A model generated the notes under the pieces. The model made no database searches. It was not told where the DNA came from and worked only from the letters and a program-made list of their open reading frames with translations. The position numbers were made by a program, and so were the translations under genes. A stretch of DNA of 64,000 nucleotides, taken from Escherichia phage vB_EcoM_G8. Location: the sequence record NC_054915.1; one strand, 5' to 3'. The first letter of the stretch is position 1. The number at the start of each line of letters is the position of its first letter. Below are positions 2,418 to 63,571 of the stretch, one piece after another.

Positions 2418-2447
2418 ATTATACCACATCCTTGTGGTAAAGTAAAC
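2418..2447 (-). promoter_or_regulatory. T4-type early promoter (-35 GTTTAC, 18-nt spacer, -10 TATAAT on minus strand)
   Basis: plus strand reads attata...gtaaac; -35 overlaps gene 39 stop codon. Confidence 0.7.
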
Positions 2448-4267
2448 TATTGGCTCATCCATTCTTTACGAAGGTCAGCATTATCTCCCATGAGCATTTC
2501 AAAAAGCTCTTTCCAGTTCTCAGGAAGTTTAACAACATCATATACTGGGTTTTGAATCATCTCACGATATTCAGATTTTTCCAAAGAGCCAAGTCCCTTA
2601 ATATAACGGATGCTATGTTTAGGTAGAGCATCTTTAGCACTCTCATATTCAGCGACTGTATAAAACCATTCTTGTTTTTTACCGACCTGAGCGATGATTA
2701 CAGGAGTTTTGACAAAACGAATTCGTCCTTGCTCAAACAATTCTGGCCAATTACTAAAAAATCCGAGCAGAGAAGGATAAATGCTTCCTAGACCATCATG
2801 GTCAGCATCAGTCATAATAGCAATATTATGATAATTCAAGTTTTCAGCTTTTTCACCAAGAACTAATCCAGTGATTGCGCAAATATCAAATAGTTCTTTG
2901 TTTTTAAGCATATCAGCATATGACATACCCCAACTGTTGAGAACTTTACCACGTAATGGATAACCACCATGAAGTTCTTTATCACGAACATCAATAAGAT
3001 ATCCGATAGCCGAATCACCCTCAGTCAAGAAAAGAGTAGTGTCAGCATCTTTACCACAAAGATTCGCTTTGATATGTTTATGAACCTTAGCTTTAGAAGC
3101 CTTTTTAGCTGCTTTAGTTTCTGCTGCTTTTTCTGCCGCCAATTTACGAGCTAATGCTGCTTCAATAATCGGCATTAAAATTGCTTCATTATTCAAAATA
3201 GCACGTGAAATCTTTTTAGCATCAAGTTGAATATGACTACGGATTTCACCAAATGGAGAAGTCAAACGCTCTTTAGTTTGAGAATCAAATCGCATGTTTT
3301 TCATATCACGAACAAACATAACGATAGTCAAACATTCTTTAACGCGTGCTTTAGTTACATCAATTTTGAACTTGCGTTTGATTTGTGGAATAAGGTCTTC
3401 ACAAATATCATCCATAACACAGTCAATGTGATGGCCACCATTCTTAGTGTGAATGTTATTCACATAAGTTAATTGACGAAAACCGTCGGGTGAACGACCA
3501 ACCGCAATAGAACAATTTTCTTGTTCTTGAACGATAGCATGTTCATCATACTGTCGTGCATATTTCTTAAAATTGCCCTGAACCTTTTTACCATTAAAGG
3601 TAAATTGAATATCAGGATAAACAACAGCAAGTGTCTGGAGACGATCTAGTGTAATGTCAAGATAAACCTGGGACAGCTCATTAGTTTCAAATGACATAAA
3701 ATCAGGAATGAAAGTAACACGGGTTCCTTTCCATTTTCCAGGAATATCTTCCCATGATTTATTTTCCATGCCGTTTGAACAACGAACTACAATATTATTT
3801 TGACCATCGCCAGTTTCACCGACAAACATCACAGAAAAAATGTTTGTCAAACTAGAACCAACACCATTCATACCGCCGGTGACGCGTTCTTTATCATCAC
3901 CGAAGTTACCACCCGCTTTTGGAATAGTCCATGCAGCAACTGGACCAGGAATTTCTTCACCGGTAGGTGTTTTAACCATCGCTTGTGGAATACCACGACC
4001 GTTATCTTCAACTGTTACTTGATTGTTTTTAATAGTAACATTAATTTTATTTGCGAATTTAAACTTAGTACGAATACCTTCATCTACTGAGTTATCGATA
4101 ATTTCATCAATAAGCTTAACAAGACCAGGTACATACTGAACACTTTCCCATTTACCAAACAGAAAGCGCTCATGCATTTCATTAGCAGAAGAGCCAATGT
4201 ACATGCCGCTACGCTTTTTGATATGTTCAATATCGCTCAGAATTTTAATTTCATTCTTAATCATCAC
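2447..4267 (-). CDS. 39: DNA topoisomerase II large subunit, uninterrupted gp39 (GyrB-like ATPase + Toprim; includes the segment that is separate gene 60 in T4)
   Basis: 606-aa ORF; GHKL ATPase and Toprim motifs; C-terminal portion continuous with N-terminal portion; directly adjacent to rIIA.1 with no mobA/gene 60 between. Confidence 0.92.
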   Translation of the reverse strand: MMIKNEIKILSDIEHIKKRSGMYIGSSANEMHERFLFGKWESVQYVPGLVKLIDEIIDNSVDEGIRTKFKFANKINVTIKNNQVTVEDNGRGIPQAMVKTPTGEEIPGPVAAWTIPKAGGNFGDDKERVTGGMNGVGSSLTNIFSVMFVGETGDGQNNIVVRCSNGMENKSWEDIPGKWKGTRVTFIPDFMSFETNELSQVYLDITLDRLQTLAVVYPDIQFTFNGKKVQGNFKKYARQYDEHAIVQEQENCSIAVGRSPDGFRQLTYVNNIHTKNGGHHIDCVMDDICEDLIPQIKRKFKIDVTKARVKECLTIVMFVRDMKNMRFDSQTKERLTSPFGEIRSHIQLDAKKISRAILNNEAILMPIIEAALARKLAAEKAAETKAAKKASKAKVHKHIKANLCGKDADTTLFLTEGDSAIGYLIDVRDKELHGGYPLRGKVLNSWGMSYADMLKNKELFDICAITGLVLGEKAENLNYHNIAIMTDADHDGLGSIYPSLLGFFSNWPELFEQGRIRFVKTPVIIAQVGKKQEWFYTVAEYESAKDALPKHSIRYIKGLGSLEKSEYREMIQNPVYDVVKLPENWKELFEMLMGDNADLRKEWMSQ

Positions 4268-4334: not shown

Positions 4335-4603
4335 TATTTAAAACGAATAGTCGAATCCTTGAAGAATAGTCCAGAACATACTGTTCCTTCTACTTTCTGC
4401 CCAGTAGGTCCAATAGCACGAAATCCAGTATGCTGGAAATCATTTTCAGAGCAACCGAACCAATTATATCCAGTGATTTCAATATTAGTAAAACCACTTG
4501 AAGACAAAACTTTGGTTGCATTATCAGCATCAGTACATCCTATTAAAGACACTGCTAATACTAATGCTGCAATAGAACGATTAATATATTTCATAATTTT
4601 CAC
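4334..4603 (-). CDS. putative lipoprotein (signal peptide + lipobox LIGC)
   Basis: 89-aa ORF; N-terminal hydrophobic segment ending in LIGC. Confidence 0.6.
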   Translation of the reverse strand: MKIMKYINRSIAALVLAVSLIGCTDADNATKVLSSSGFTNIEITGYNWFGCSENDFQHTGFRAIGPTGQKVEGTVCSGLFFKDSTIRFK

Positions 4604-4977
4604 TTAAATTTAATGGCTTGAAGAAGACTAATAACTCTCAAGCGGCTTCTTTCATCTTTAACTGTAAAGGAAAGAGGGTCACCAGATTTCATAGTGATAG
4701 TGCATTCAAAATCAAAATCTTCAGGAACTTCTTCGAAGAAGTCAAATTCTTCATCATAAATTAGAACATTACTTTGAAAACTGTGAAGAATTTTTCCATC
4801 ATTTCCAGATGCTGTACTAATCATTGTAACATTATTACCTTTCATATCTTCAACGATAAATTCGCTTGTAGATATTACAGCATTAATAGAACCATTCCTA
4901 TAAATAGCAGACATTAGATATTTCTTTTCTTCGCCTTCGCGAATACGATACTTCTTACCGATTTTAAACATAATCAC
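4600..4977 (-). CDS. hypothetical protein
   Basis: 125-aa ORF, start/stop overlap with neighbours typical of T4 early operons. Confidence 0.5.
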   Translation of the reverse strand: MIMFKIGKKYRIREGEEKKYLMSAIYRNGSINAVISTSEFIVEDMKGNNVTMISTASGNDGKILHSFQSNVLIYDEEFDFFEEVPEDFDFECTITMKSGDPLSFTVKDERSRLRVISLLQAIKFK

Positions 4978-5787: not shown

Positions 5788-5885
5788 TACAATTTCCTCA
5801 TTAATTAAACATTGGAGCGATGCGTTTCAGAAGAGTATCAGCACCTTTAGCGAATTTCCATTTTATTCTCCAAGTTGTTTTCTGT

Positions 5886-5927
5886 ATCAGTAGTTGATAT
5901 TGATATAGTACCATAATCAACTACTGA
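5886..5927. repeat. 13-bp perfect inverted repeat (atcagtagttgat / atcaactactgat) with 16-nt spacer containing early-promoter-like tatagtacca motif
   Basis: read directly in intergenic region 5788-5958. Confidence 0.6.
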
Positions 5928-5958
5928 TGTATATAGTTTTATGAAAAAATTTTAAACT

Positions 5959-25147: not shown

Positions 25148-25157
25148 AATAATTTCC

Positions 25158-25406
25158 TCAAATGCAAGTAGTAATTACTCCAGTAGTGCTTATGCAGGTA
25201 TTACCTAATTGAACACCCAGCGTTCCATTAGTATTCATATGAAGATTATCATCAATTTTTGTTGATACTTTACCATTCATGTGAATAACAGTATTAGATT
25301 CAATCACATTCTGAGTATCATTTTCAATATCAATAAATGGAACAGCTGCTAATGCAACTAAACAAACTGCTAAGCATCCCATAACAATTTTCATTTTATT
25401 CTCCAA
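25158..25406 (-). CDS. small secreted protein (signal peptide); true start probably M5 MKIVMG
   Basis: 82-aa track ORF; GGAG RBS lies inside first codons; downstream of early promoter. Confidence 0.55.
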   Translation of the reverse strand: MENKMKIVMGCLAVCLVALAAVPFIDIENDTQNVIESNTVIHMNGKVSTKIDDNLHMNTNGTLGVQLGNTCISTTGVITTCI

Positions 25407-25428
25407 ATCCGTATTAGTTGATAGTTGT

Positions 25429-25458
25429 ATAGTACCATAGAAGAACAGGGATGTAAAC
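25429..25458 (-). promoter_or_regulatory. T4-type early promoter within repeated promoter cassette
   Basis: plus strand gttgatagttgtatagtaccat...gtaaac. Confidence 0.65.
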
Positions 25459-25545
25459 AGTTTTGTGAAAAATTTTTAGGGAATCCAAAGGGTCCAGAAT
25501 CATCTCTTTTTCATAAGTATAGATTTATATTACTTGTATGAAAAA

Positions 25546-25561
25546 GGGACCTGGAGGTCCC
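25546..25561 (-). terminator. intrinsic terminator downstream of gene 43 (GC stem gggacc/ggtccc followed by U5 on minus strand)
   Basis: plus strand aaaaa-gggacc-tgga-ggtccc. Confidence 0.6.
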
Positions 25562-25574
25562 TAGATTTATTCTA

Positions 25575-28309: not shown

Positions 28310-28331
28310 TGATATATTATACTCCAAATAA

Positions 28332-28345
28332 GGGGCCGAAGCCCC
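28332..28345 (-). promoter_or_regulatory. C(UUCG)G stem-loop between regA and gene 43, followed by ttggagTATAAT
   Basis: plus strand ggggc-cgaa-gcccc. Confidence 0.55.
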
Positions 28346-28349
28346 TTGC

Positions 28350-28718
28350 TTAATTACCAATCGTATATTTAGGAACGAGTTTCCATTCATGTTTTTGTTT
28401 AAAAGAAATAACTCGGAAGTTATTAGTTAAATCTTTCATAAAAGTTCTTTGACCAGGAACGATTTCAATCAGTCCCCAATCTTCTAACAACCATGCAATC
28501 GAATCACGACGAACTTCATCTTCTTCTGTCATTTCAACTTGGCGACCATCCATACGAAGCATTTCTTTAAAATGAACGATATAGTATAGTCCTTTTTTCT
28601 GAAGAATATGACAGGACTGATACAGAACTTTATCTTTATTATTAGCAATTCCCATACGAGTCAAAGTTTCTTTTACTTTCAGAAAATCTTCAGGTTTTTT
28701 AAGAGTAATTTCAATCAT
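28350..28718 (-). CDS. regA: RegA translational repressor
   Basis: 122-aa ORF, T4 RegA length and position. Confidence 0.9.
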   Translation of the reverse strand: MIEITLKKPEDFLKVKETLTRMGIANNKDKVLYQSCHILQKKGLYYIVHFKEMLRMDGRQVEMTEEDEVRRDSIAWLLEDWGLIEIVPGQRTFMKDLTNNFRVISFKQKHEWKLVPKYTIGN

Positions 28719-30244: not shown

Positions 30245-30275
30245 AATTTCCTCATTCAAGTTTTAGTGTAAATTA

Positions 30276-30295
30276 TAGAGGGCCGAAGCCCTCTA
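30276..30295 (-). promoter_or_regulatory. 8-bp C(UUCG)G stem-loop between genes 45 and 44
   Basis: plus strand tagagggc-cgaa-gccctcta. Confidence 0.55.
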
Positions 30296-30982
30296 TTAAA
30301 AATCGTGGGTAGAATCAGCTTCAAGAGCTACTACATAATTCGCGTGTTCACCTTCAAATTTAGCAGCGCCTTGTTTACCTTTTGCCCAGAGCAGAAGTTT
30401 ATAATTTCCTGGTTGCATTTTCATATTTGCCATATTGATAATGAAATTAAATGTATTTTCACCATCATAATCACCAAGAGTCAAAGAATATTTAACACGG
30501 GTCAGAGCAGAATCTTCTACTTTATTAAAACCGTTAATTACGATTTTACCTTCTTTTACCGTGATAGCAATTGTATCAATTTGCAGACCACGAGATACAC
30601 GCAACAGTTGTTGAAGGTCTTCAGCTTTAATTTCAGTAACAACAGATGCTACCGGGAATGGAATTGGTTTATTAGGAGCAACTACTGTACTCGGATCGGC
30701 TGCTGGCCAAAAAATTGTTGAGCGGGCATCAGCAATTTTAATATTTCCATCTTCTGACTGGGAAATTTCTGCATCATCATTAACTAGAGACAGAATACCG
30801 AGAAAACCATTCAAATCGTAAATTGCTACATCAAAATCAATAACGTCAGAAATATTTGCTTCCGCATAAGTTGTACCATTAACTGCGCGAGTCATAATAA
30901 ATTGACCGGATTTAAGCATAATTCCAGAGTTAATAGTAGCGAAATTTTTCAAAATATTCAGTGTATCTTTAGACAGTTTCAT
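30296..30982 (-). CDS. 45: sliding clamp gp45
   Basis: 228-aa ORF matching remembered T4 gp45. Confidence 0.95.
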   Translation of the reverse strand: MKLSKDTLNILKNFATINSGIMLKSGQFIMTRAVNGTTYAEANISDVIDFDVAIYDLNGFLGILSLVNDDAEISQSEDGNIKIADARSTIFWPAADPSTVVAPNKPIPFPVASVVTEIKAEDLQQLLRVSRGLQIDTIAITVKEGKIVINGFNKVEDSALTRVKYSLTLGDYDGENTFNFIINMANMKMQPGNYKLLLWAKGKQGAAKFEGEHANYVVALEADSTHDF

Positions 30983-34826: not shown

Positions 34827-34986
34827 ATATCAAGAACCGTCATTGAAATGCAAAATAAAATTATTGAAATAAATCCATCTGGAGTGCTAAAGAACCCAAT
34901 CCAACATGCTTTAGTGAATAGATAAAATGCAAGAAAAAGTATCACATATCCAAGAAATATCATTATATCAAACTCCGTATAAAGCT

Positions 34987-35004
34987 AAAGGGCCGAAGCC
35001 CTTT
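34987..35004 (-). promoter_or_regulatory. C(UUCG)G stem-loop downstream of agt
   Basis: plus strand aaagggc-cgaa-gcccttt; same flanks as the 4317 copy. Confidence 0.55.
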
Positions 35005-36205
35005 ATTTTGTAATAATGTCAAACTGTTCTTTAAAGCAGAAGCTTGAATCTTGATGCTGATACAAAAATTCATAAGCTTTTTCGCGTTCACGGTCATAAA
35101 GAGTTCGGTCAGATGACAGTTCTTTAATACGCTCGAATGTTGATTCCATGTCATTTTCATCAAACCAAATGATACCGCTATCATGCGAGGTCAAAGGAGT
35201 ATTATCAACACGGAATTTTAAATTTTCGCCAGTAGATTTCCAAAATACCGGAATTGTTCCACATGCACCAAGCTCGAGATGAGTATATTCTAAAGAGCGC
35301 TGTAGATATTTTTTATCCAACTTACTCAACTGATAACCAAATCCGGATTTACTCATGCGTTCAAGCATTTCGCTATTTACATAACGGTCAAGAATTTGCG
35401 TTGGCAAATTAGGAGCAATTTTAATTTGGTCTACTTGATGAAGACGATAATACTCGTATGGAATTCCTTTTTCTTTAATAGGAATGAACGCTGGAGAACG
35501 TTCCAGACCTTCCATAATAGTACTTAGTCCTGCAGGTTTAAGATGTTTTTCATGAAAATCAAACATCTGATAAAAACCTTTCCATGTAGTCGTACGACCA
35601 ATCCAACGGTTGATATTCATGTTAATTTCAGAAACATCTTTCCAGTAGGTTGATCGAACCTTCGCAATATCCATAGGAGGCTGAAAGTTGTATACAGTCG
35701 GTGCTTCTTCAATATCATCAAACAGAGAAACTGTTTCTGGATACCATTCTTTCATCAGAACTTTATTAAAATCGCCATTATCAGAATGACTAAAAATAAC
35801 ATCAGCTCGACGAACAGTTTCTTCTAATCCCAAATTTCGGCGCAAAGAAAGAGAAGAATGGTCATGTTGATAAACTACAACACGAACCGAAGGTTTAATG
35901 TTATCAATAATTTTTTTATAGTTATTAATAGTGTCTTCTTCAACTGAAGTAGCAGGAACTGAATTGATAATTAGAATATCACAATCATTTACCAGCTTAA
36001 GTGTTTTATCGTATTCTTTTGCCAATAAAACCGGAATTGAAAATGATTTATAATCATGCGCACAGTTACGAGTAAATGATTTATCTTTAGCATAAACCAA
36101 AGTTACTTCATGACCATTTTTAATAAACCAATCACGCTGCTCAAGAGAAAATTTAGTTACACCGCAACCTTCAAGACCCCGAGCCATAAAAATGCAAATA
36201 CGCAT
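35003..36205 (-). CDS. agt: DNA alpha-glucosyltransferase
   Basis: start set at MRICIFMARGLEGCG (400 aa) matching remembered T4 alpha-gt. Confidence 0.9.
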   Translation of the reverse strand: MRICIFMARGLEGCGVTKFSLEQRDWFIKNGHEVTLVYAKDKSFTRNCAHDYKSFSIPVLLAKEYDKTLKLVNDCDILIINSVPATSVEEDTINNYKKIIDNIKPSVRVVVYQHDHSSLSLRRNLGLEETVRRADVIFSHSDNGDFNKVLMKEWYPETVSLFDDIEEAPTVYNFQPPMDIAKVRSTYWKDVSEINMNINRWIGRTTTWKGFYQMFDFHEKHLKPAGLSTIMEGLERSPAFIPIKEKGIPYEYYRLHQVDQIKIAPNLPTQILDRYVNSEMLERMSKSGFGYQLSKLDKKYLQRSLEYTHLELGACGTIPVFWKSTGENLKFRVDNTPLTSHDSGIIWFDENDMESTFERIKELSSDRTLYDREREKAYEFLYQHQDSSFCFKEQFDIITK

Positions 36206-38535: not shown

Positions 38536-38613
38536 TTTCACCTCTTAGCTCAATTCATAGATCTATTATATCATAATATTTGAAGATCTATCTTAAAGCA
38601 TAGAGGATATCAG

Positions 38614-38883
38614 TTATCTAAGTAAGCAGTATGCTTGGAACACTTTCTCCATCATCTTTTTAAATTCATGAATATCTATGTAATGATCATTAATATCAGC
38701 GCGATATAAAAAGTCTAAAAACTTTTTATGGGTATTAGAATATTTACTTCCAGTTAATTCAGAAACATGGCTTTCCCAATATCCAACACCAGTTTTATTT
38801 GGGAAAAATGAAATTTTCATGTATTGGTCAACATAGAAAATACCAAAATTTTCAATAGCAATAGAAATATTAATTAATTTCAT
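38614..38883 (-). CDS. hypothetical protein (55.x series)
   Basis: 89-aa ORF. Confidence 0.5.
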   Translation of the reverse strand: MKLINISIAIENFGIFYVDQYMKISFFPNKTGVGYWESHVSELTGSKYSNTHKKFLDFLYRADINDHYIDIHEFKKMMEKVFQAYCLLR

Positions 38884-39424: not shown

Positions 39425-39463
39425 ACATTATCCTCAATTACGTTAAAATTTTATTATCCAAAA

Positions 39464-39479
39464 AAGGGCCGAAGCCCTT
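39464..39479 (-). terminator. intrinsic terminator: C(UUCG)G stem-loop followed by U6 on minus strand
   Basis: plus strand aaaaaa-gggcc-gaa-gccctt. Confidence 0.6.
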
Positions 39480-39678
39480 AGCTAAACTTTTTGGCACCCT
39501 TCCAGCCTTCGTACATCATTGCGGCTGATATTAATATTGCTCCTGAGCAACTTGAATATTTGTGATTCCAAAACCAGTTTAGAAAAACTTCGTCATCAAT
39601 ACCTTGTGCTATCATATTTTCAAAGAACTGACGACGAGCTTCAGCAATTCGCTGCGATAATTTAGATTCAGGATTCAT
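39478..39678 (-). CDS. hypothetical small protein
   Basis: 66-aa ORF. Confidence 0.5.
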   Translation of the reverse strand: MNPESKLSQRIAEARRQFFENMIAQGIDDEVFLNWFWNHKYSSCSGAILISAAMMYEGWKGAKKFS

Positions 39679-53226: not shown

Positions 53227-54207
53227 TTATTTCAGAAGAGTAACCGTAGCAATTTCTTCCCAATGGTTTTTGTCGGTCATAATAAAGTCAGCAAGATAAA
53301 GAGCAGTACGCAGTGAAACATTGCGTAAACGATTAACATTGACTTTCATCCATGATAATGCTTTATAAGTTTCTTCATCAGAAAGACCGCGCTTTTGCAT
53401 CATGTCGGTTGAAAGAATAACATCTTCAACCCTGACCATAATTTCTTCATTAGTGTGAACACCCAAATCCAAATAAACTGAGCGGGACACTAATGCTTGT
53501 AAATGTGGAGCAAGTTTAGTACCACGGTCTAATTCGCGGTCAATGTCAACGTTTGTGATAAAAACAATCGTTCCTTTAAATTCAAACTCACGCTCAATGC
53601 CTTTTTCTTCTAAGTAAGAAGATGCAGTGCTCCAGCAGACTTTACGGGTCTCTCCAGTGTCCAGAGCGGCTTTTAGAAGATTAAGAATGTCCATATCAGA
53701 GAAAACATCCACATCATCAATCAAAAGGACAGAATTCTCTTCACGATTATTCCAAAGCTGTTCATAAAGACCGATACCAGAGATTTTACCATTAATGCTT
53801 TTATACTCAATGTATCCATTATCATTTGCTTTATTTAAAGCTTTATCTAAAGAATATGTTTTACCAATACCTGCTGCACCAGAGATAATTAATGAACGAA
53901 TGTTTCCGTTAATAATACCATTCGTCATCATTCCCATAACATTAAATCTTTTATTAATGCGGGTTTTCATATCTTCATACGATTCTTTAACTTCTTCAAC
54001 TTTTACACCATCATATGAAATGTCTGATTTGTAAACCCAAACACCGCGACGTTTACCGTCAATTTCAACAAAAACTTTACCATCTCCTTGTGCATCTACC
54101 GGAGCATTATCTGGGAACCATTCACCTAAGAGCTCAAAAGTTCCAGAGATTTCTTTACCAAAGTAGATACCCTTATTGATAGTTACAGTTTTCATTTTAT
54201 TCTCCAA
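53227..54207 (-). CDS. P-loop (AAA-like) ATPase; true start probably M5 MKTVTIN
   Basis: 326-aa track ORF; Walker A GAAGIGKT, Walker B LLIDDVD. Confidence 0.65.
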   Translation of the reverse strand: MENKMKTVTINKGIYFGKEISGTFELLGEWFPDNAPVDAQGDGKVFVEIDGKRRGVWVYKSDISYDGVKVEEVKESYEDMKTRINKRFNVMGMMTNGIINGNIRSLIISGAAGIGKTYSLDKALNKANDNGYIEYKSINGKISGIGLYEQLWNNREENSVLLIDDVDVFSDMDILNLLKAALDTGETRKVCWSTASSYLEEKGIEREFEFKGTIVFITNVDIDRELDRGTKLAPHLQALVSRSVYLDLGVHTNEEIMVRVEDVILSTDMMQKRGLSDEETYKALSWMKVNVNRLRNVSLRTALYLADFIMTDKNHWEEIATVTLLK

Positions 54208-54229
54208 ATCCGTATCAGTTGATAGTTGT

Positions 54230-54259
54230 ATAGTACCATAAAGCTTTATGCTTGTAAAC
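54230..54259 (-). promoter_or_regulatory. T4-type early promoter in repeated cassette (about 85 percent identical over about 95 nt to the 25390-25480 copy)
   Basis: direct sequence comparison. Confidence 0.65.
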
Positions 54260-54289
54260 AGTTTTGTGAAAAATTTTTGAAATAAAAAA

Positions 54290-54307
54290 GGGAGCCCGAA
54301 GGCTCCC
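54290..54307 (-). terminator. intrinsic terminator: 7-bp C(UUCG)G stem-loop plus U-run, downstream of nucleotidyltransferase gene
   Basis: plus strand aaaaaa-gggagcc-cgaa-ggctccc. Confidence 0.6.
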
Positions 54308-54309
54308 TA

Positions 54310-55320
54310 TCATTTATAATAACTTCGGTGGTTTTCAAGATAGACCTTCTCAAGGAAGTCATCCCAGAAACTCATGTCTACTGTTTTAGGCATACCATTC
54401 TTAGAAGCTTCAGTAGATGCTGCTTCTACTTGATCGACCACATCTTCCAAAAACTCTTGAACTGTTTTAAATGGATGTTTACCCAACTTCACGTCGAGAA
54501 TAAATGGAGCATCTTGGAGTGGATAAATCAAGTCGCCAGTTTTGTAAATTTCCAATAGTTGAAGTCCACCACGACAAGCATGACTTAGTGCTTTCCAATC
54601 AATACCTTCATTAGCTTCGGCCTTACGAGCACGTTCACCATATTCAGCATCTAATTTGTTCAGTGACTGCTTAAGCTCAATAAGAGAAAGCGTTGTCTGA
54701 TATTTACGACCCAGCACTGTATAGAACGTTTGTGGACCTGTTTTCTCATGATTATGGAACACCCATTCACAGAATTCGTTTTCTGGAAGACGATGCTTAA
54801 TATCTTCAACTTTAGTACGACGCTGCTTAATGGAACCGTCTTCTTGGTAATCAACCCATTGCTCAGGGATTTGATTAACTACTTTCAATACATCATGTAA
54901 TGCAGCCAAACGAGAACCCTTGACGCCGTATTTAGAAGCTTGCTTGCGGACATATCCTAAATAGGATTTCATGTTAGTCGTATAAAAACGAGAACGGTTG
55001 TCTTGAATAAACTTCCACACATCAGGCAAATCAGATTTAACTACTAGTTCAGGTGGAGTGTGAAGCATATCCAATGCTACAGTTTCACCATCTGCTGCTA
55101 ATTTAAAGAAATATTTAAGACTGTATAGTTCATGGTCAATATCATCTTTAGTGTTTTTAGATGATGTGTTGTTGGTGTTTTTACTCATGTGCTCTTTAAC
55201 GTTACCGGTCAAGATATCACGAGCATGAGGGACATAAATTTCTTTAAAATCGACGTCAGATTCAGGAGTAGACGTTCCATAAAGGTGGCTACCAAAATAA
55301 GACTTAACTACAGTTTTCAT
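54310..55320 (-). CDS. nucleotidyltransferase-fold protein (Pol-beta superfamily GS...D.D motif)
   Basis: 336-aa ORF; N-terminal YFGSHLYGTSTPESDVDF. Confidence 0.6.
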   Translation of the reverse strand: MKTVVKSYFGSHLYGTSTPESDVDFKEIYVPHARDILTGNVKEHMSKNTNNTSSKNTKDDIDHELYSLKYFFKLAADGETVALDMLHTPPELVVKSDLPDVWKFIQDNRSRFYTTNMKSYLGYVRKQASKYGVKGSRLAALHDVLKVVNQIPEQWVDYQEDGSIKQRRTKVEDIKHRLPENEFCEWVFHNHEKTGPQTFYTVLGRKYQTTLSLIELKQSLNKLDAEYGERARKAEANEGIDWKALSHACRGGLQLLEIYKTGDLIYPLQDAPFILDVKLGKHPFKTVQEFLEDVVDQVEAASTEASKNGMPKTVDMSFWDDFLEKVYLENHRSYYK

Positions 55321-57891: not shown

Positions 57892-58057
57892 ATATTAATT
57901 TCCAGAAGTTTTAAAATAATTCGCTTTTGCTTAAATATTTCCATAGTTAAATGATCAGTATCTTTTTGGCCAATTCCAATGGCAAAACCTTTATTAGCAG
58001 CGAGTTCAATTAAATTATCAAGTTCACGTGACACTTCATATTGTAACTCAGAACTAT

Positions 58058-58270
58058 TCATTTCGGTTTACCTTCTTTAACGAAATCTGGATAAGGATAA
58101 AATCCCGAATAAAATCCTTCACCTTTATGATTGATGCATCCTTTATTAGAACAATAGCACCAATAATCGAAATCACAAGCCATTTCATCGTTGCATAAAG
58201 CAAAAACAACTGGCCATTTACACTTTTCACAGTGGGCATTTTTAAGAATACTAGTTTGGCTCATAACCAT
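58058..58270 (-). CDS. cysteine-rich small protein (putative metal-binding)
   Basis: 70-aa ORF with 9 Cys; preferred over overlapping 58054-58239 frame. Confidence 0.45.
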   Translation of the reverse strand: MVMSQTSILKNAHCEKCKWPVVFALCNDEMACDFDYWCYCSNKGCINHKGEGFYSGFYPYPDFVKEGKPK

Positions 58271-59820: not shown

Positions 59821-60282
59821 TCATTGAGTTTTAATTACTGCTTTAGAAGCCTTTCCTGGTAAACGACGACTGTTGATAATTGCCATCCTGCATTGAAGTG
59901 ACGGGTTTTTGAACTTCTCATTAGGCTTACAAACCGTAAATCCAAGCCAAAGATTTCCATCTGTAATTTCCAAACGCCCAGGACGATATTCAACCCCATC
60001 AATAAAATCCTCGTCAATGTCAGGACGCGGAGGCATACTCAGGAATTCATTAACTTCTAAAACATGGTCTTTTATTTTATGGAATAATTCAAAAACATAT
60101 GTCTCATCAATCTCCCGTTGAATTGCACGATCAAGAAGATGTTGAGAATATTTTAGATGAAACGATGAGACTCCTGCTGCTTTTGATGCCTCACGAATCT
60201 CATTGTTAATTTGACGAAACTCCGACTCAAAGTGACGACGAAGCTTATTTCGACGGATAAAAACTTCTGTATTGATAGTCAT
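59821..60282 (-). CDS. regB: RegB endoribonuclease
   Basis: 153-aa ORF, T4 RegB length; early promoter and GGAG RBS upstream. Confidence 0.88.
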   Translation of the reverse strand: MTINTEVFIRRNKLRRHFESEFRQINNEIREASKAAGVSSFHLKYSQHLLDRAIQREIDETYVFELFHKIKDHVLEVNEFLSMPPRPDIDEDFIDGVEYRPGRLEITDGNLWLGFTVCKPNEKFKNPSLQCRMAIINSRRLPGKASKAVIKTQ

Positions 60283-60309
60283 GTTATTCTCCTCTTAACT
60301 GATAGAAAA

Positions 60310-60339
60310 ATTATACCACAGTCAAGAGGAAAAGTAAAC
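60310..60339 (-). promoter_or_regulatory. T4-type early promoter for regB
   Basis: plus strand attataccacagtcaagaggaaaagtaaac. Confidence 0.65.
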
Positions 60340-63541: not shown

Positions 63542-63571
63542 ATAGTATCAAAACCCTTGGAGGAAGTAAAC
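63542..63571 (-). promoter_or_regulatory. T4-type early promoter immediately upstream of denV remnant
   Basis: plus strand atagta-18nt-gtaaac. Confidence 0.6.

Follow-up and report, generated by a model that had tools for sequence, protein, structure and literature searches.

The two copies and their genes

Two stretches of near-identical DNA precede two unrelated genes in the window, by which we mean the whole stretch of 64,000 nt that was analysed. Copy A sits between the orthologues of nrdC.11 and nrdC.10, and copy B between gene 43, which encodes DNA polymerase, and an ORF of 78 aa, after which come imm.1 (DUF5481) and imm. The genes at both copies lie on the minus strand. The nrdC.11 orthologue is an RlaP-type nucleotidyltransferase (Pfam, E 1e-11), and the NrdC.10 orthologue has Walker A and Walker B motifs, its matches to AAA/STAND families in Pfam all being sub-threshold. 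The elements of the two copies, together with a third copy (cassette C) and the regB gene of the same window, are as follows.

Copy A
54289..54308, minus strand, rho-independent terminator hairpin of nrdC.11 (terminator scan and folding)
54253..54278, minus strand, UP-like block and -35, AAAAATTTTTCACAAAACTGTTTACA (the -35, TTTACA, is 54253-54258)
54230..54252, minus strand, 17-nt spacer, TGn (54236-54238) and -10 (TACTAT, 54230-54235)
54206..54229, minus strand, discriminator and 5' leader (folding and alignment)
54195..54205, minus strand, SD (GGAG 54202-54205) as part of GGAGAATAAAA, identical to the RegB/S1 11-nt consensus
53227..54195, minus strand, nrdC.10 orthologue, 322 aa when read from the ATG, with Walker A (GAAGIGKT) and Walker B (LLIDD) motifs

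Copy B
25545..25562, minus strand, gene 43 terminator hairpin, separated from the UP block downstream by about 67 nt
25452..25477, minus strand, UP-like block and -35 (TTTACA is 25452-25457)
25405..25451, minus strand, spacer, TGn, -10 and leader (locus-specific spacer 25440-25451; TACTAT 25429-25434)
25394..25404, minus strand, SD (GGAG 25401-25404), the exact RegB/S1 consensus GGAGAATAAAA (ATG 25392-25394)
25158..25394, minus strand, 78-aa ORF with a hydrophobic N-terminus (MKIVMGCLAVCLVALAAV...), absent from T4

Elsewhere in the window
5855..5956, minus strand, cassette C, third close member of the A/B leader subfamily, between motB and cef
59821..60282, minus strand, regB endoribonuclease gene (PF10715, E 5.9e-69)

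In both copies a G+C hairpin followed by a T-run lies upstream of a promoter composed of TTTACA, a 17-nt spacer and TACTAT, with TG before the -10. The hairpin of copy A has an 8-bp G+C stem, a UUCG loop and a T-run at 54283-54288; it folds with -16.2 kcal/mol (z -3.3) and ends 10 nt from the UP block. The locus-specific part of the copy A spacer is 54241-54252. Judged from the position of the -10, transcription of copy A would start at about 54223, and that of copy B probably at about 25422.

A repeat search of the whole window paired 54185-54278 with 25384-25477 at 88% identity over 94 nt, ungapped, and blastn with copy A against the whole window returned copy B (88.3% over 94 nt, E 6.8e-30), a match far above chance. 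An earlier note on this DNA had described about 95 nt of roughly 85% identity between 54190-54280 and 25390-25480, and had named pairwise alignment as the check; that alignment, at 88% and ungapped, shows the description to have been essentially right. The identity is very unevenly spread. Counted block by block, 5' to 3' along the gene strand, the A/T-rich UP-like block with the -35, AAAAATTTTTCACAAAACTGTTTACA, is identical at 26/26 positions, the TGn/-10/+1 region, TATGGTACTATACAACTA, at 18/18, and the stretch from SD to ATG, GGAGAATAAAATG, at 13/13, and the 17-nt leader agrees at 16 positions, while the 12 nt of the promoter spacer agree at only 3. Mismatches are concentrated in that spacer, and the functional blocks are 94-100% identical. 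Past the ATG, five of the next 6 nt still match; beyond them the figure is 4/17, and A and B are unrelated. The shared promoter, leader and GGAG RBS of the earlier note are all present, but the six shared codons that it added are reduced to ATG AAA and a few nucleotides: the common coding part reads ATG AAA A(C/T)T GT, giving MKTV in NrdC.10 and MKIV in the 78-aa protein.

Promoter class and counterparts in T4

In T4 early promoters, further consensus regions accompany the UP, -35, TGn and -10 elements (Hinton 2010, PMC2988021); Nolan et al. (2006, PMC1524935) place GTTTAC at -36 to -31 and an A-rich stretch at -40 to -44. Copies A and B carry the UP element, the -35 (GTTTAC), TGn and the -10 in the correct register, and resemble the T4 class in having GTTTAC at about -36 to -31, A-rich DNA upstream, TGn, TAnnnT and a position 5' of early-strand genes. 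We found no difference of substance; the combination of TACTAT with ACAACTATC marks a sub-type and not the whole class. A generic sigma70 scan does not set the region apart from shuffled sequence, with 12 sites around copy A where 10.9 were expected. It is the extended T4-specific pattern, together with orthology, that supports the promoters. In its strict form (GTTTAC, 14-16 nt, T[A/G]N, TAnnnT), this pattern is matched by 15 sites of the window. All of them are on the gene strand, with an SD and an ATG following at a distance of 20-40 nt; a variant at 5913 brings the number to 16.

Among the 120 pairs that can be formed from 16 promoters, aligned on their -10 elements, A and B stand out with 76% identity over 115 nt; the median is 40%, and no other pair exceeds 56%. 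The A/B pair is closer than the consensus of the promoter class requires. Cassette C joins them in its -10 (TACTAT), in GGAGAATAAAA at 5861-5871 (GGAG 5868-5871) and in its ATG, after which only a 4-codon ORF follows. The core TGGTACTATACAACTATC is also present in two neighbouring promoters, 52819 and 55956, and the sub-type defined by a TACTAT -10 and a ACAACTATC +1 region comprises 4 promoters of the window, or 6 with the variants at 63571 and 5913. The leaders of the other early promoters in the window are quite unlike the A/B leader.

The window is Tequatrovirus DNA, about 97% identical to Tequatrovirus genomes (97-98% at both loci, in many genomes) and collinear with T4 from T4 position 12, with small indels and with homing-endonuclease genes missing. 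T4 has both cassettes at the same loci, before nrdC.10 and imm.1, and its orthologous promoter sites are nearly identical to A and B; in a search that 677 records matched, related genomes contain the cassette at 5-8 places each. In time-resolved omics data, T4 nrdC.10, imm.1 and cef are early both as RNA and as protein (PMC9697503 supplements).

Orthologous copies resemble each other more than paralogous ones do. Copy A of the window and copy A of T4 agree at 106/108 positions, whereas A and B agree at 94/111 in the window, 86/112 in T4 and 89/113 in an IMG/VR relative. Each locus also keeps its own spacer from phage to phage (AGCATAAAGCTT at A, CTGTTCTTC-type at B). On these comparisons the A/B pair is old, a recent duplication being ruled out, and its history points to purifying selection that would have acted on every block but the spacer. 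The repeat is real but ordinary, the cassette being well known from T4-like phages, where it stands before many unrelated early genes; T4 has the same two copies. A test for gene conversion or concerted evolution of the two copies gave no support, given the greater likeness of orthologues and the stable locus-specific spacers. Variants of the leader with ACT or ACTACT are common to several loci, and slippage could explain them.

Leader RNA, predicted RegB sites and start codons

The consensus for RegB/S1 is given as the 11-nt GGAGAAUAAAA by Durand et al. (2006, PMC1702504) and by Uzan and Miller (2010, PMC3014915); the former describe RegB/S1 as acting on single-stranded RNA and report 26 cleaved RegB sites in T4 (Durand et al. 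2006, PMC1702504). The 11-mer GGAGAATAAAA, matching at 11/11 positions, occurs exactly three times in the window where 0.13 occurrences were expected (54195-54205, 25394-25404 and 5861-5871), and all three are the SDs of cassettes A, B and C. Because the exact 11-mer stands at all three SDs and regB lies in the same window, the messages of the three cassettes would be among the most RegB-sensitive early mRNAs. The A and B sites resemble the RegB/S1 targets of T4 in that an exact 11-mer doubles as the SD, in that it lies in an unstructured, intergenic early-gene leader and in that the genome contains regB; they differ in that the T4 targets are cleaved, whereas the A and B sites are predicted here from sequence.

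The leaders of A and B, with an inferred length of about 28 nt, have MFEs of -2.7 and -3.1 kcal/mol; relative to shuffled sequence their z-scores are +0.48 and +0.56. Both are predicted to be unstructured, with the SD unpaired or weakly paired. The 17 nt of leader before the SD are nevertheless conserved beyond the known requirements of promoter or RegB, and conservation that exceeds the apparent needs of promoter and SD would suit a structured cis-regulatory RNA, be it an attenuator or an element that binds a protein or an sRNA. We consider such an element very improbable: the two leaders fold no better than their shuffles, no Rfam family reaches threshold (the weak matches all fall on the terminator hairpin), and RegB/S1 needs single-stranded RNA. 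Common descent is the simplest reason for the conservation of the leader, although a function of its own is conceivable. The earlier note had both proteins begin with MENKMK, a reading that arises because the ORF lister starts at the first ATG, GTG or TTG past a stop, and translation from the upstream TTG (54205-54207 in copy A, in frame with the ATG at 54193-54195) would make the shared MENK extension real and the copied unit a true gene-start module. TTG can serve as a start codon, and A and B both have it in frame, but it consists of the TT before GGAG and the first G of GGAG itself, and an overlap of this kind leaves it without an SD of its own, while the ATG of both copies follows 6 nt after GGAG. 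T4 nrdC.10 and imm.1 are annotated from the ATG; the codon is altered in the cassette B region of T4, which reads GGAGAATGAAATG and would yield MENEMK; and in cassette C the identical TTG...ATG arrangement leads into a frame that is closed after 4 codons. A TTG start is thus hardly credible, and the sequence evidence indicates that NrdC.10 and the 78-aa protein start at the ATG, not at the TTG.

Cassettes A, B and C, with the cassette of T4 e.8, have a near-identical 5' UTR and a perfect RegB/S1 11-mer. It is conceivable, though we think it unlikely, that these four form a distinct immediate-early sub-regulon in which the 17-24 nt between -10 and SD are functional and the cassettes are dedicated 'gene-docking' sites. 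On such a reading the -10-to-SD stretch might be, for example, the binding site of an early factor or a preferred site of crossover.

A possible RegA site at the start of the 78-aa ORF was rejected. There, AAAATTGTTATG agrees with the T4 RegA SELEX consensus at 12/15 nt, which is not above chance: the window contains 15 RegA-like matches with at most 3 mismatches where 14.2 were expected, and 5 matches to a 12-mer with at most 1 mismatch where 2.2 were expected.

Relation to PeSL and probable gene exchange at the cassettes

An element of the same build is known from T4-like phages as PeSL (promoter-early stem-loop), which consists of a stem-loop terminator, an A/T-rich block, a sigma70-like promoter, an SD and a start codon (Arbiol 2010, PMC2839356; Comeau 2014, PMC4122927), with the PST/T4 promoter consensus TTTACW-N17-TAYWAT (PMC2839356; PMC4122927). 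Copies A and B have this full composition, including the SD and the start codon downstream of it. Their TTTACA-17-TACTAT fits the consensus, the A/T-rich AAAAATTTTTCACAAAAC lies upstream in both, and the hairpin of copy A is the stem-loop part of the element. Like PeSL, the cassette occurs in several copies per genome before unrelated early ORFs, and it is linked to indels between close relatives whose junctions fall in the zone from the -10 to the SD or ATG. It departs from the described element at copy B, which follows gene 43 on the border of the conserved replication module and does not lie in a hyperplastic region, and whose stem-loop, about 67 nt upstream of the promoter, is more loosely attached than that of copy A. 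The mini-circles formed at PeSLs have been demonstrated for RB49/phi1, not for the phage of the window; their crossovers were sequenced between the -10 and the SD or ATG (Arbiol et al. 2010, PMC2839356). T4 and its relatives are already known to have such elements, with this promoter class, a RegB-sensitive SD and a role in gene shuffling.

Comparison of genomes places one extended cassette before at least six different genes in T4, the window and IMG/VR contigs: nrdC.10, imm.1, the 78-aa ORF, e.8 (MDNYGELF...), and two genes whose products begin MKFKFYYAKHK... and MSKVTYIIK.... In IMG/VR, exact matches to the -10/+1 core were present in 15 stretches, which belong to six T4-like contigs. The cassette of T4 e.8 is chimeric, with a B-type upstream half and spacer and a C-type leader. 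At cassette B the window has 233 nt more than T4, comprising the 78-aa ORF. This extra DNA separates the leader from imm.1, and each of its two junctions carries ATGAAAAT; deletion between these repeats gives the arrangement of T4 and of IMG/VR contig L005, in which the cassette is fused directly to imm.1. Within cassette A, vB_EcoM_G2540 and one IMG/VR contig have an insert of two ORFs and a second promoter, which has CTATCAAAACAAA at both junctions and lies between the -10 and the SD. Direct excision by A x B recombination would be lethal, since the two copies are separated by 28.8 kb that include essential genes.

We conclude that A and B are, very probably, paralogous copies of the T4-type early promoter-leader cassette (PeSL). 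The present analysis establishes the anatomy of the copies, their family and its occurrence in T4, the junctions of the indels and the exact match to the RegB consensus; early expression, the specificity of RegB and recombination at PeSLs are taken from the T4 literature. Under this model, unmodified host sigma70 RNA polymerase would fire from TTTACA-17-TGnTACTAT right after infection. For copy A the early unit would start at nrdC.10, and for copy B at the 78-aa ORF, with imm.1 and imm following. Being A-rich and unstructured, the leader would favour efficient initiation at the ATG (MK...) and not at the TTG. RegB with ribosomal protein S1 would then cut GG^AG in the SD region, GGAGAAUAAAA, and the cut A and B messages would be inactivated within minutes. 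The near-identity of the copies would reflect common descent and purifying selection on the functional blocks, the spacer alone having drifted. Because the copies place long exact homologies at gene starts, they could serve as crossover points for the insertion, deletion and swapping of genes among T4-like phages. RegB cleavage at the A and B sites, and crossovers at these particular copies, are what we infer from this model.

Two other histories could produce so similar a pair. Each site might have been selected independently towards a single optimum, with neither shared ancestry nor recombination; such pure convergence would explain why all known functional blocks are conserved and the spacer is not, and extended consensus regions are known in T4 early promoters. 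We nevertheless regard it as unlikely, as the +1 region and leader agree at 34/35 positions without a known sequence requirement while the leaders of other promoters differ, as chimeric copies exist (T4 e.8), and as indel junctions fall inside the cassette. Less probable still, to the point that we give it very little weight, is a recent, one-off segmental duplication that placed the 5' region of one gene before another. The 88% identity and its abrupt end a few nucleotides into each gene are what such an event would leave; yet T4 and IMG/VR relatives have both copies at the same loci with the same locus-specific spacers, the mismatches are clustered in the spacer instead of scattered, and further members of the family are present. 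The earlier note had pictured a regulatory cassette copied together with a gene start. A cassette that reaches the start codon of unrelated genes is indeed what the alignment reveals, but the one-off copy finds no support, because the family is old and multi-copy and includes T4.

Recognition of A and B as paralogous PeSL copies is of direct use for annotation: it fixes the starts of nrdC.10 and of the 78-aa ORF at the ATG, marks where early transcription units begin and predicts which messages are shut off by RegB. The two loci also provide two clean natural cases of gene gain or loss exactly at a cassette, namely the 78-aa ORF in comparison with T4 and the two-ORF insert of G2540.

The 78-aa ORF next to cassette B

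Cassette B, a copy of the T4-type early promoter-leader unit, opens a short reading frame that is missing in T4 and found in several relatives.

25158-25394, minus strand: 78-aa ORF with a hydrophobic N-terminus; indel segment, 25148-25380

Both junctions of this segment carry ATGAAAAT, which points to short-homology recombination, either losing or gaining the 78-aa ORF, as the event that joins cassette B directly to imm.1. The start of the ORF (25377-25391, minus strand) reads AAAATTGTTATGGGA and matches the T4 RegA SELEX consensus aaAAUUGUUAUGUAA at 13 of 15 nt, 12 of them contiguous; according to a review, this consensus has no exact natural match in T4. Across the window, the number of matches to the RegA consensus showed no excess over chance.

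The stretch that separates cassette B from the gene 43 terminator holds an inverted repeat, with TATAAAT (25523-25529), resembling the T4 late promoter TATAAATA, in its loop.

25506-25546, minus strand: inverted repeat of 14-16 bp, CTTTTTCATACAAGTA ... TACTTATGAAAAAG

Other members of the cassette family

A third copy, cassette C, has a perfect GGAGAATAAAA and an ATG, as do copies A and B.

5855-5956, minus strand: cassette C, between motB and cef

Its ATG opens an ORF of only 4 codons (MEIR*); the T4 counterpart is in another frame and has 11 codons (MENSLKVLILF*). Cassette C looks like an orphan gene start remaining 5' of cef; cef is served by a separate SD, 60 nt farther downstream.

Outside the window, the T4 cassette 5' of e.8 resembles cassette B in its upstream half and spacer but has a cassette C leader, and looks like a recombinant of cassette family members.

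T4 ~70.67 kb (~34.6 kb in L003, the T4 stretch compared): cassette 5' of e.8

Cassette A, 5' of nrdC.10, is interrupted in relatives by an insert that contains a second early promoter and two small ORFs of 49 aa and 87 aa. CTATCAAAACAAA flanks the insert at both junctions, its position being between the -10 and the SD, and in other phages this locus carries a DUF4031 annotation.

657-1232 of the Escherichia phage vB_EcoM_G2540 stretch: insert within cassette A, also in an IMG/VR contig (L014)

regB, the topoisomerase gene and further differences from T4

A dedicated early promoter (GTTTAC at 60339) precedes regB, whose SD region reads GAGGAGAATAACATG. Both features are consistent with reports that the regB mRNA undergoes self-cleavage and autoregulation.

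59821-60339, minus strand: regB with its upstream region

The T4 interval 2794-3910, with the 50-nt translational bypass as well as 60.1 and mobA, is missing from the window, which leaves the large subunit of the topoisomerase unsplit.

2447-4267, minus strand: single 606-aa ORF spanning T4 genes 60 and 39

Several homing-endonuclease segments of T4 (mobC, mobD to mobD.2a, the segA/beta-gt region and the segF/soc region) are gone or replaced, and small inserts are specific to the window relative to T4.

4597-4968, 38609-38868, 57893-58259: small window-specific inserts

Finally, short hairpins with GGGCCGAAGCCC on the plus strand, whose gene-strand form has a UUCG tetraloop, sit in intergenic positions within the replication gene cluster.

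28327-28353, 30274-30300, 34984-35010, 39460-39486: short G+C hairpin family
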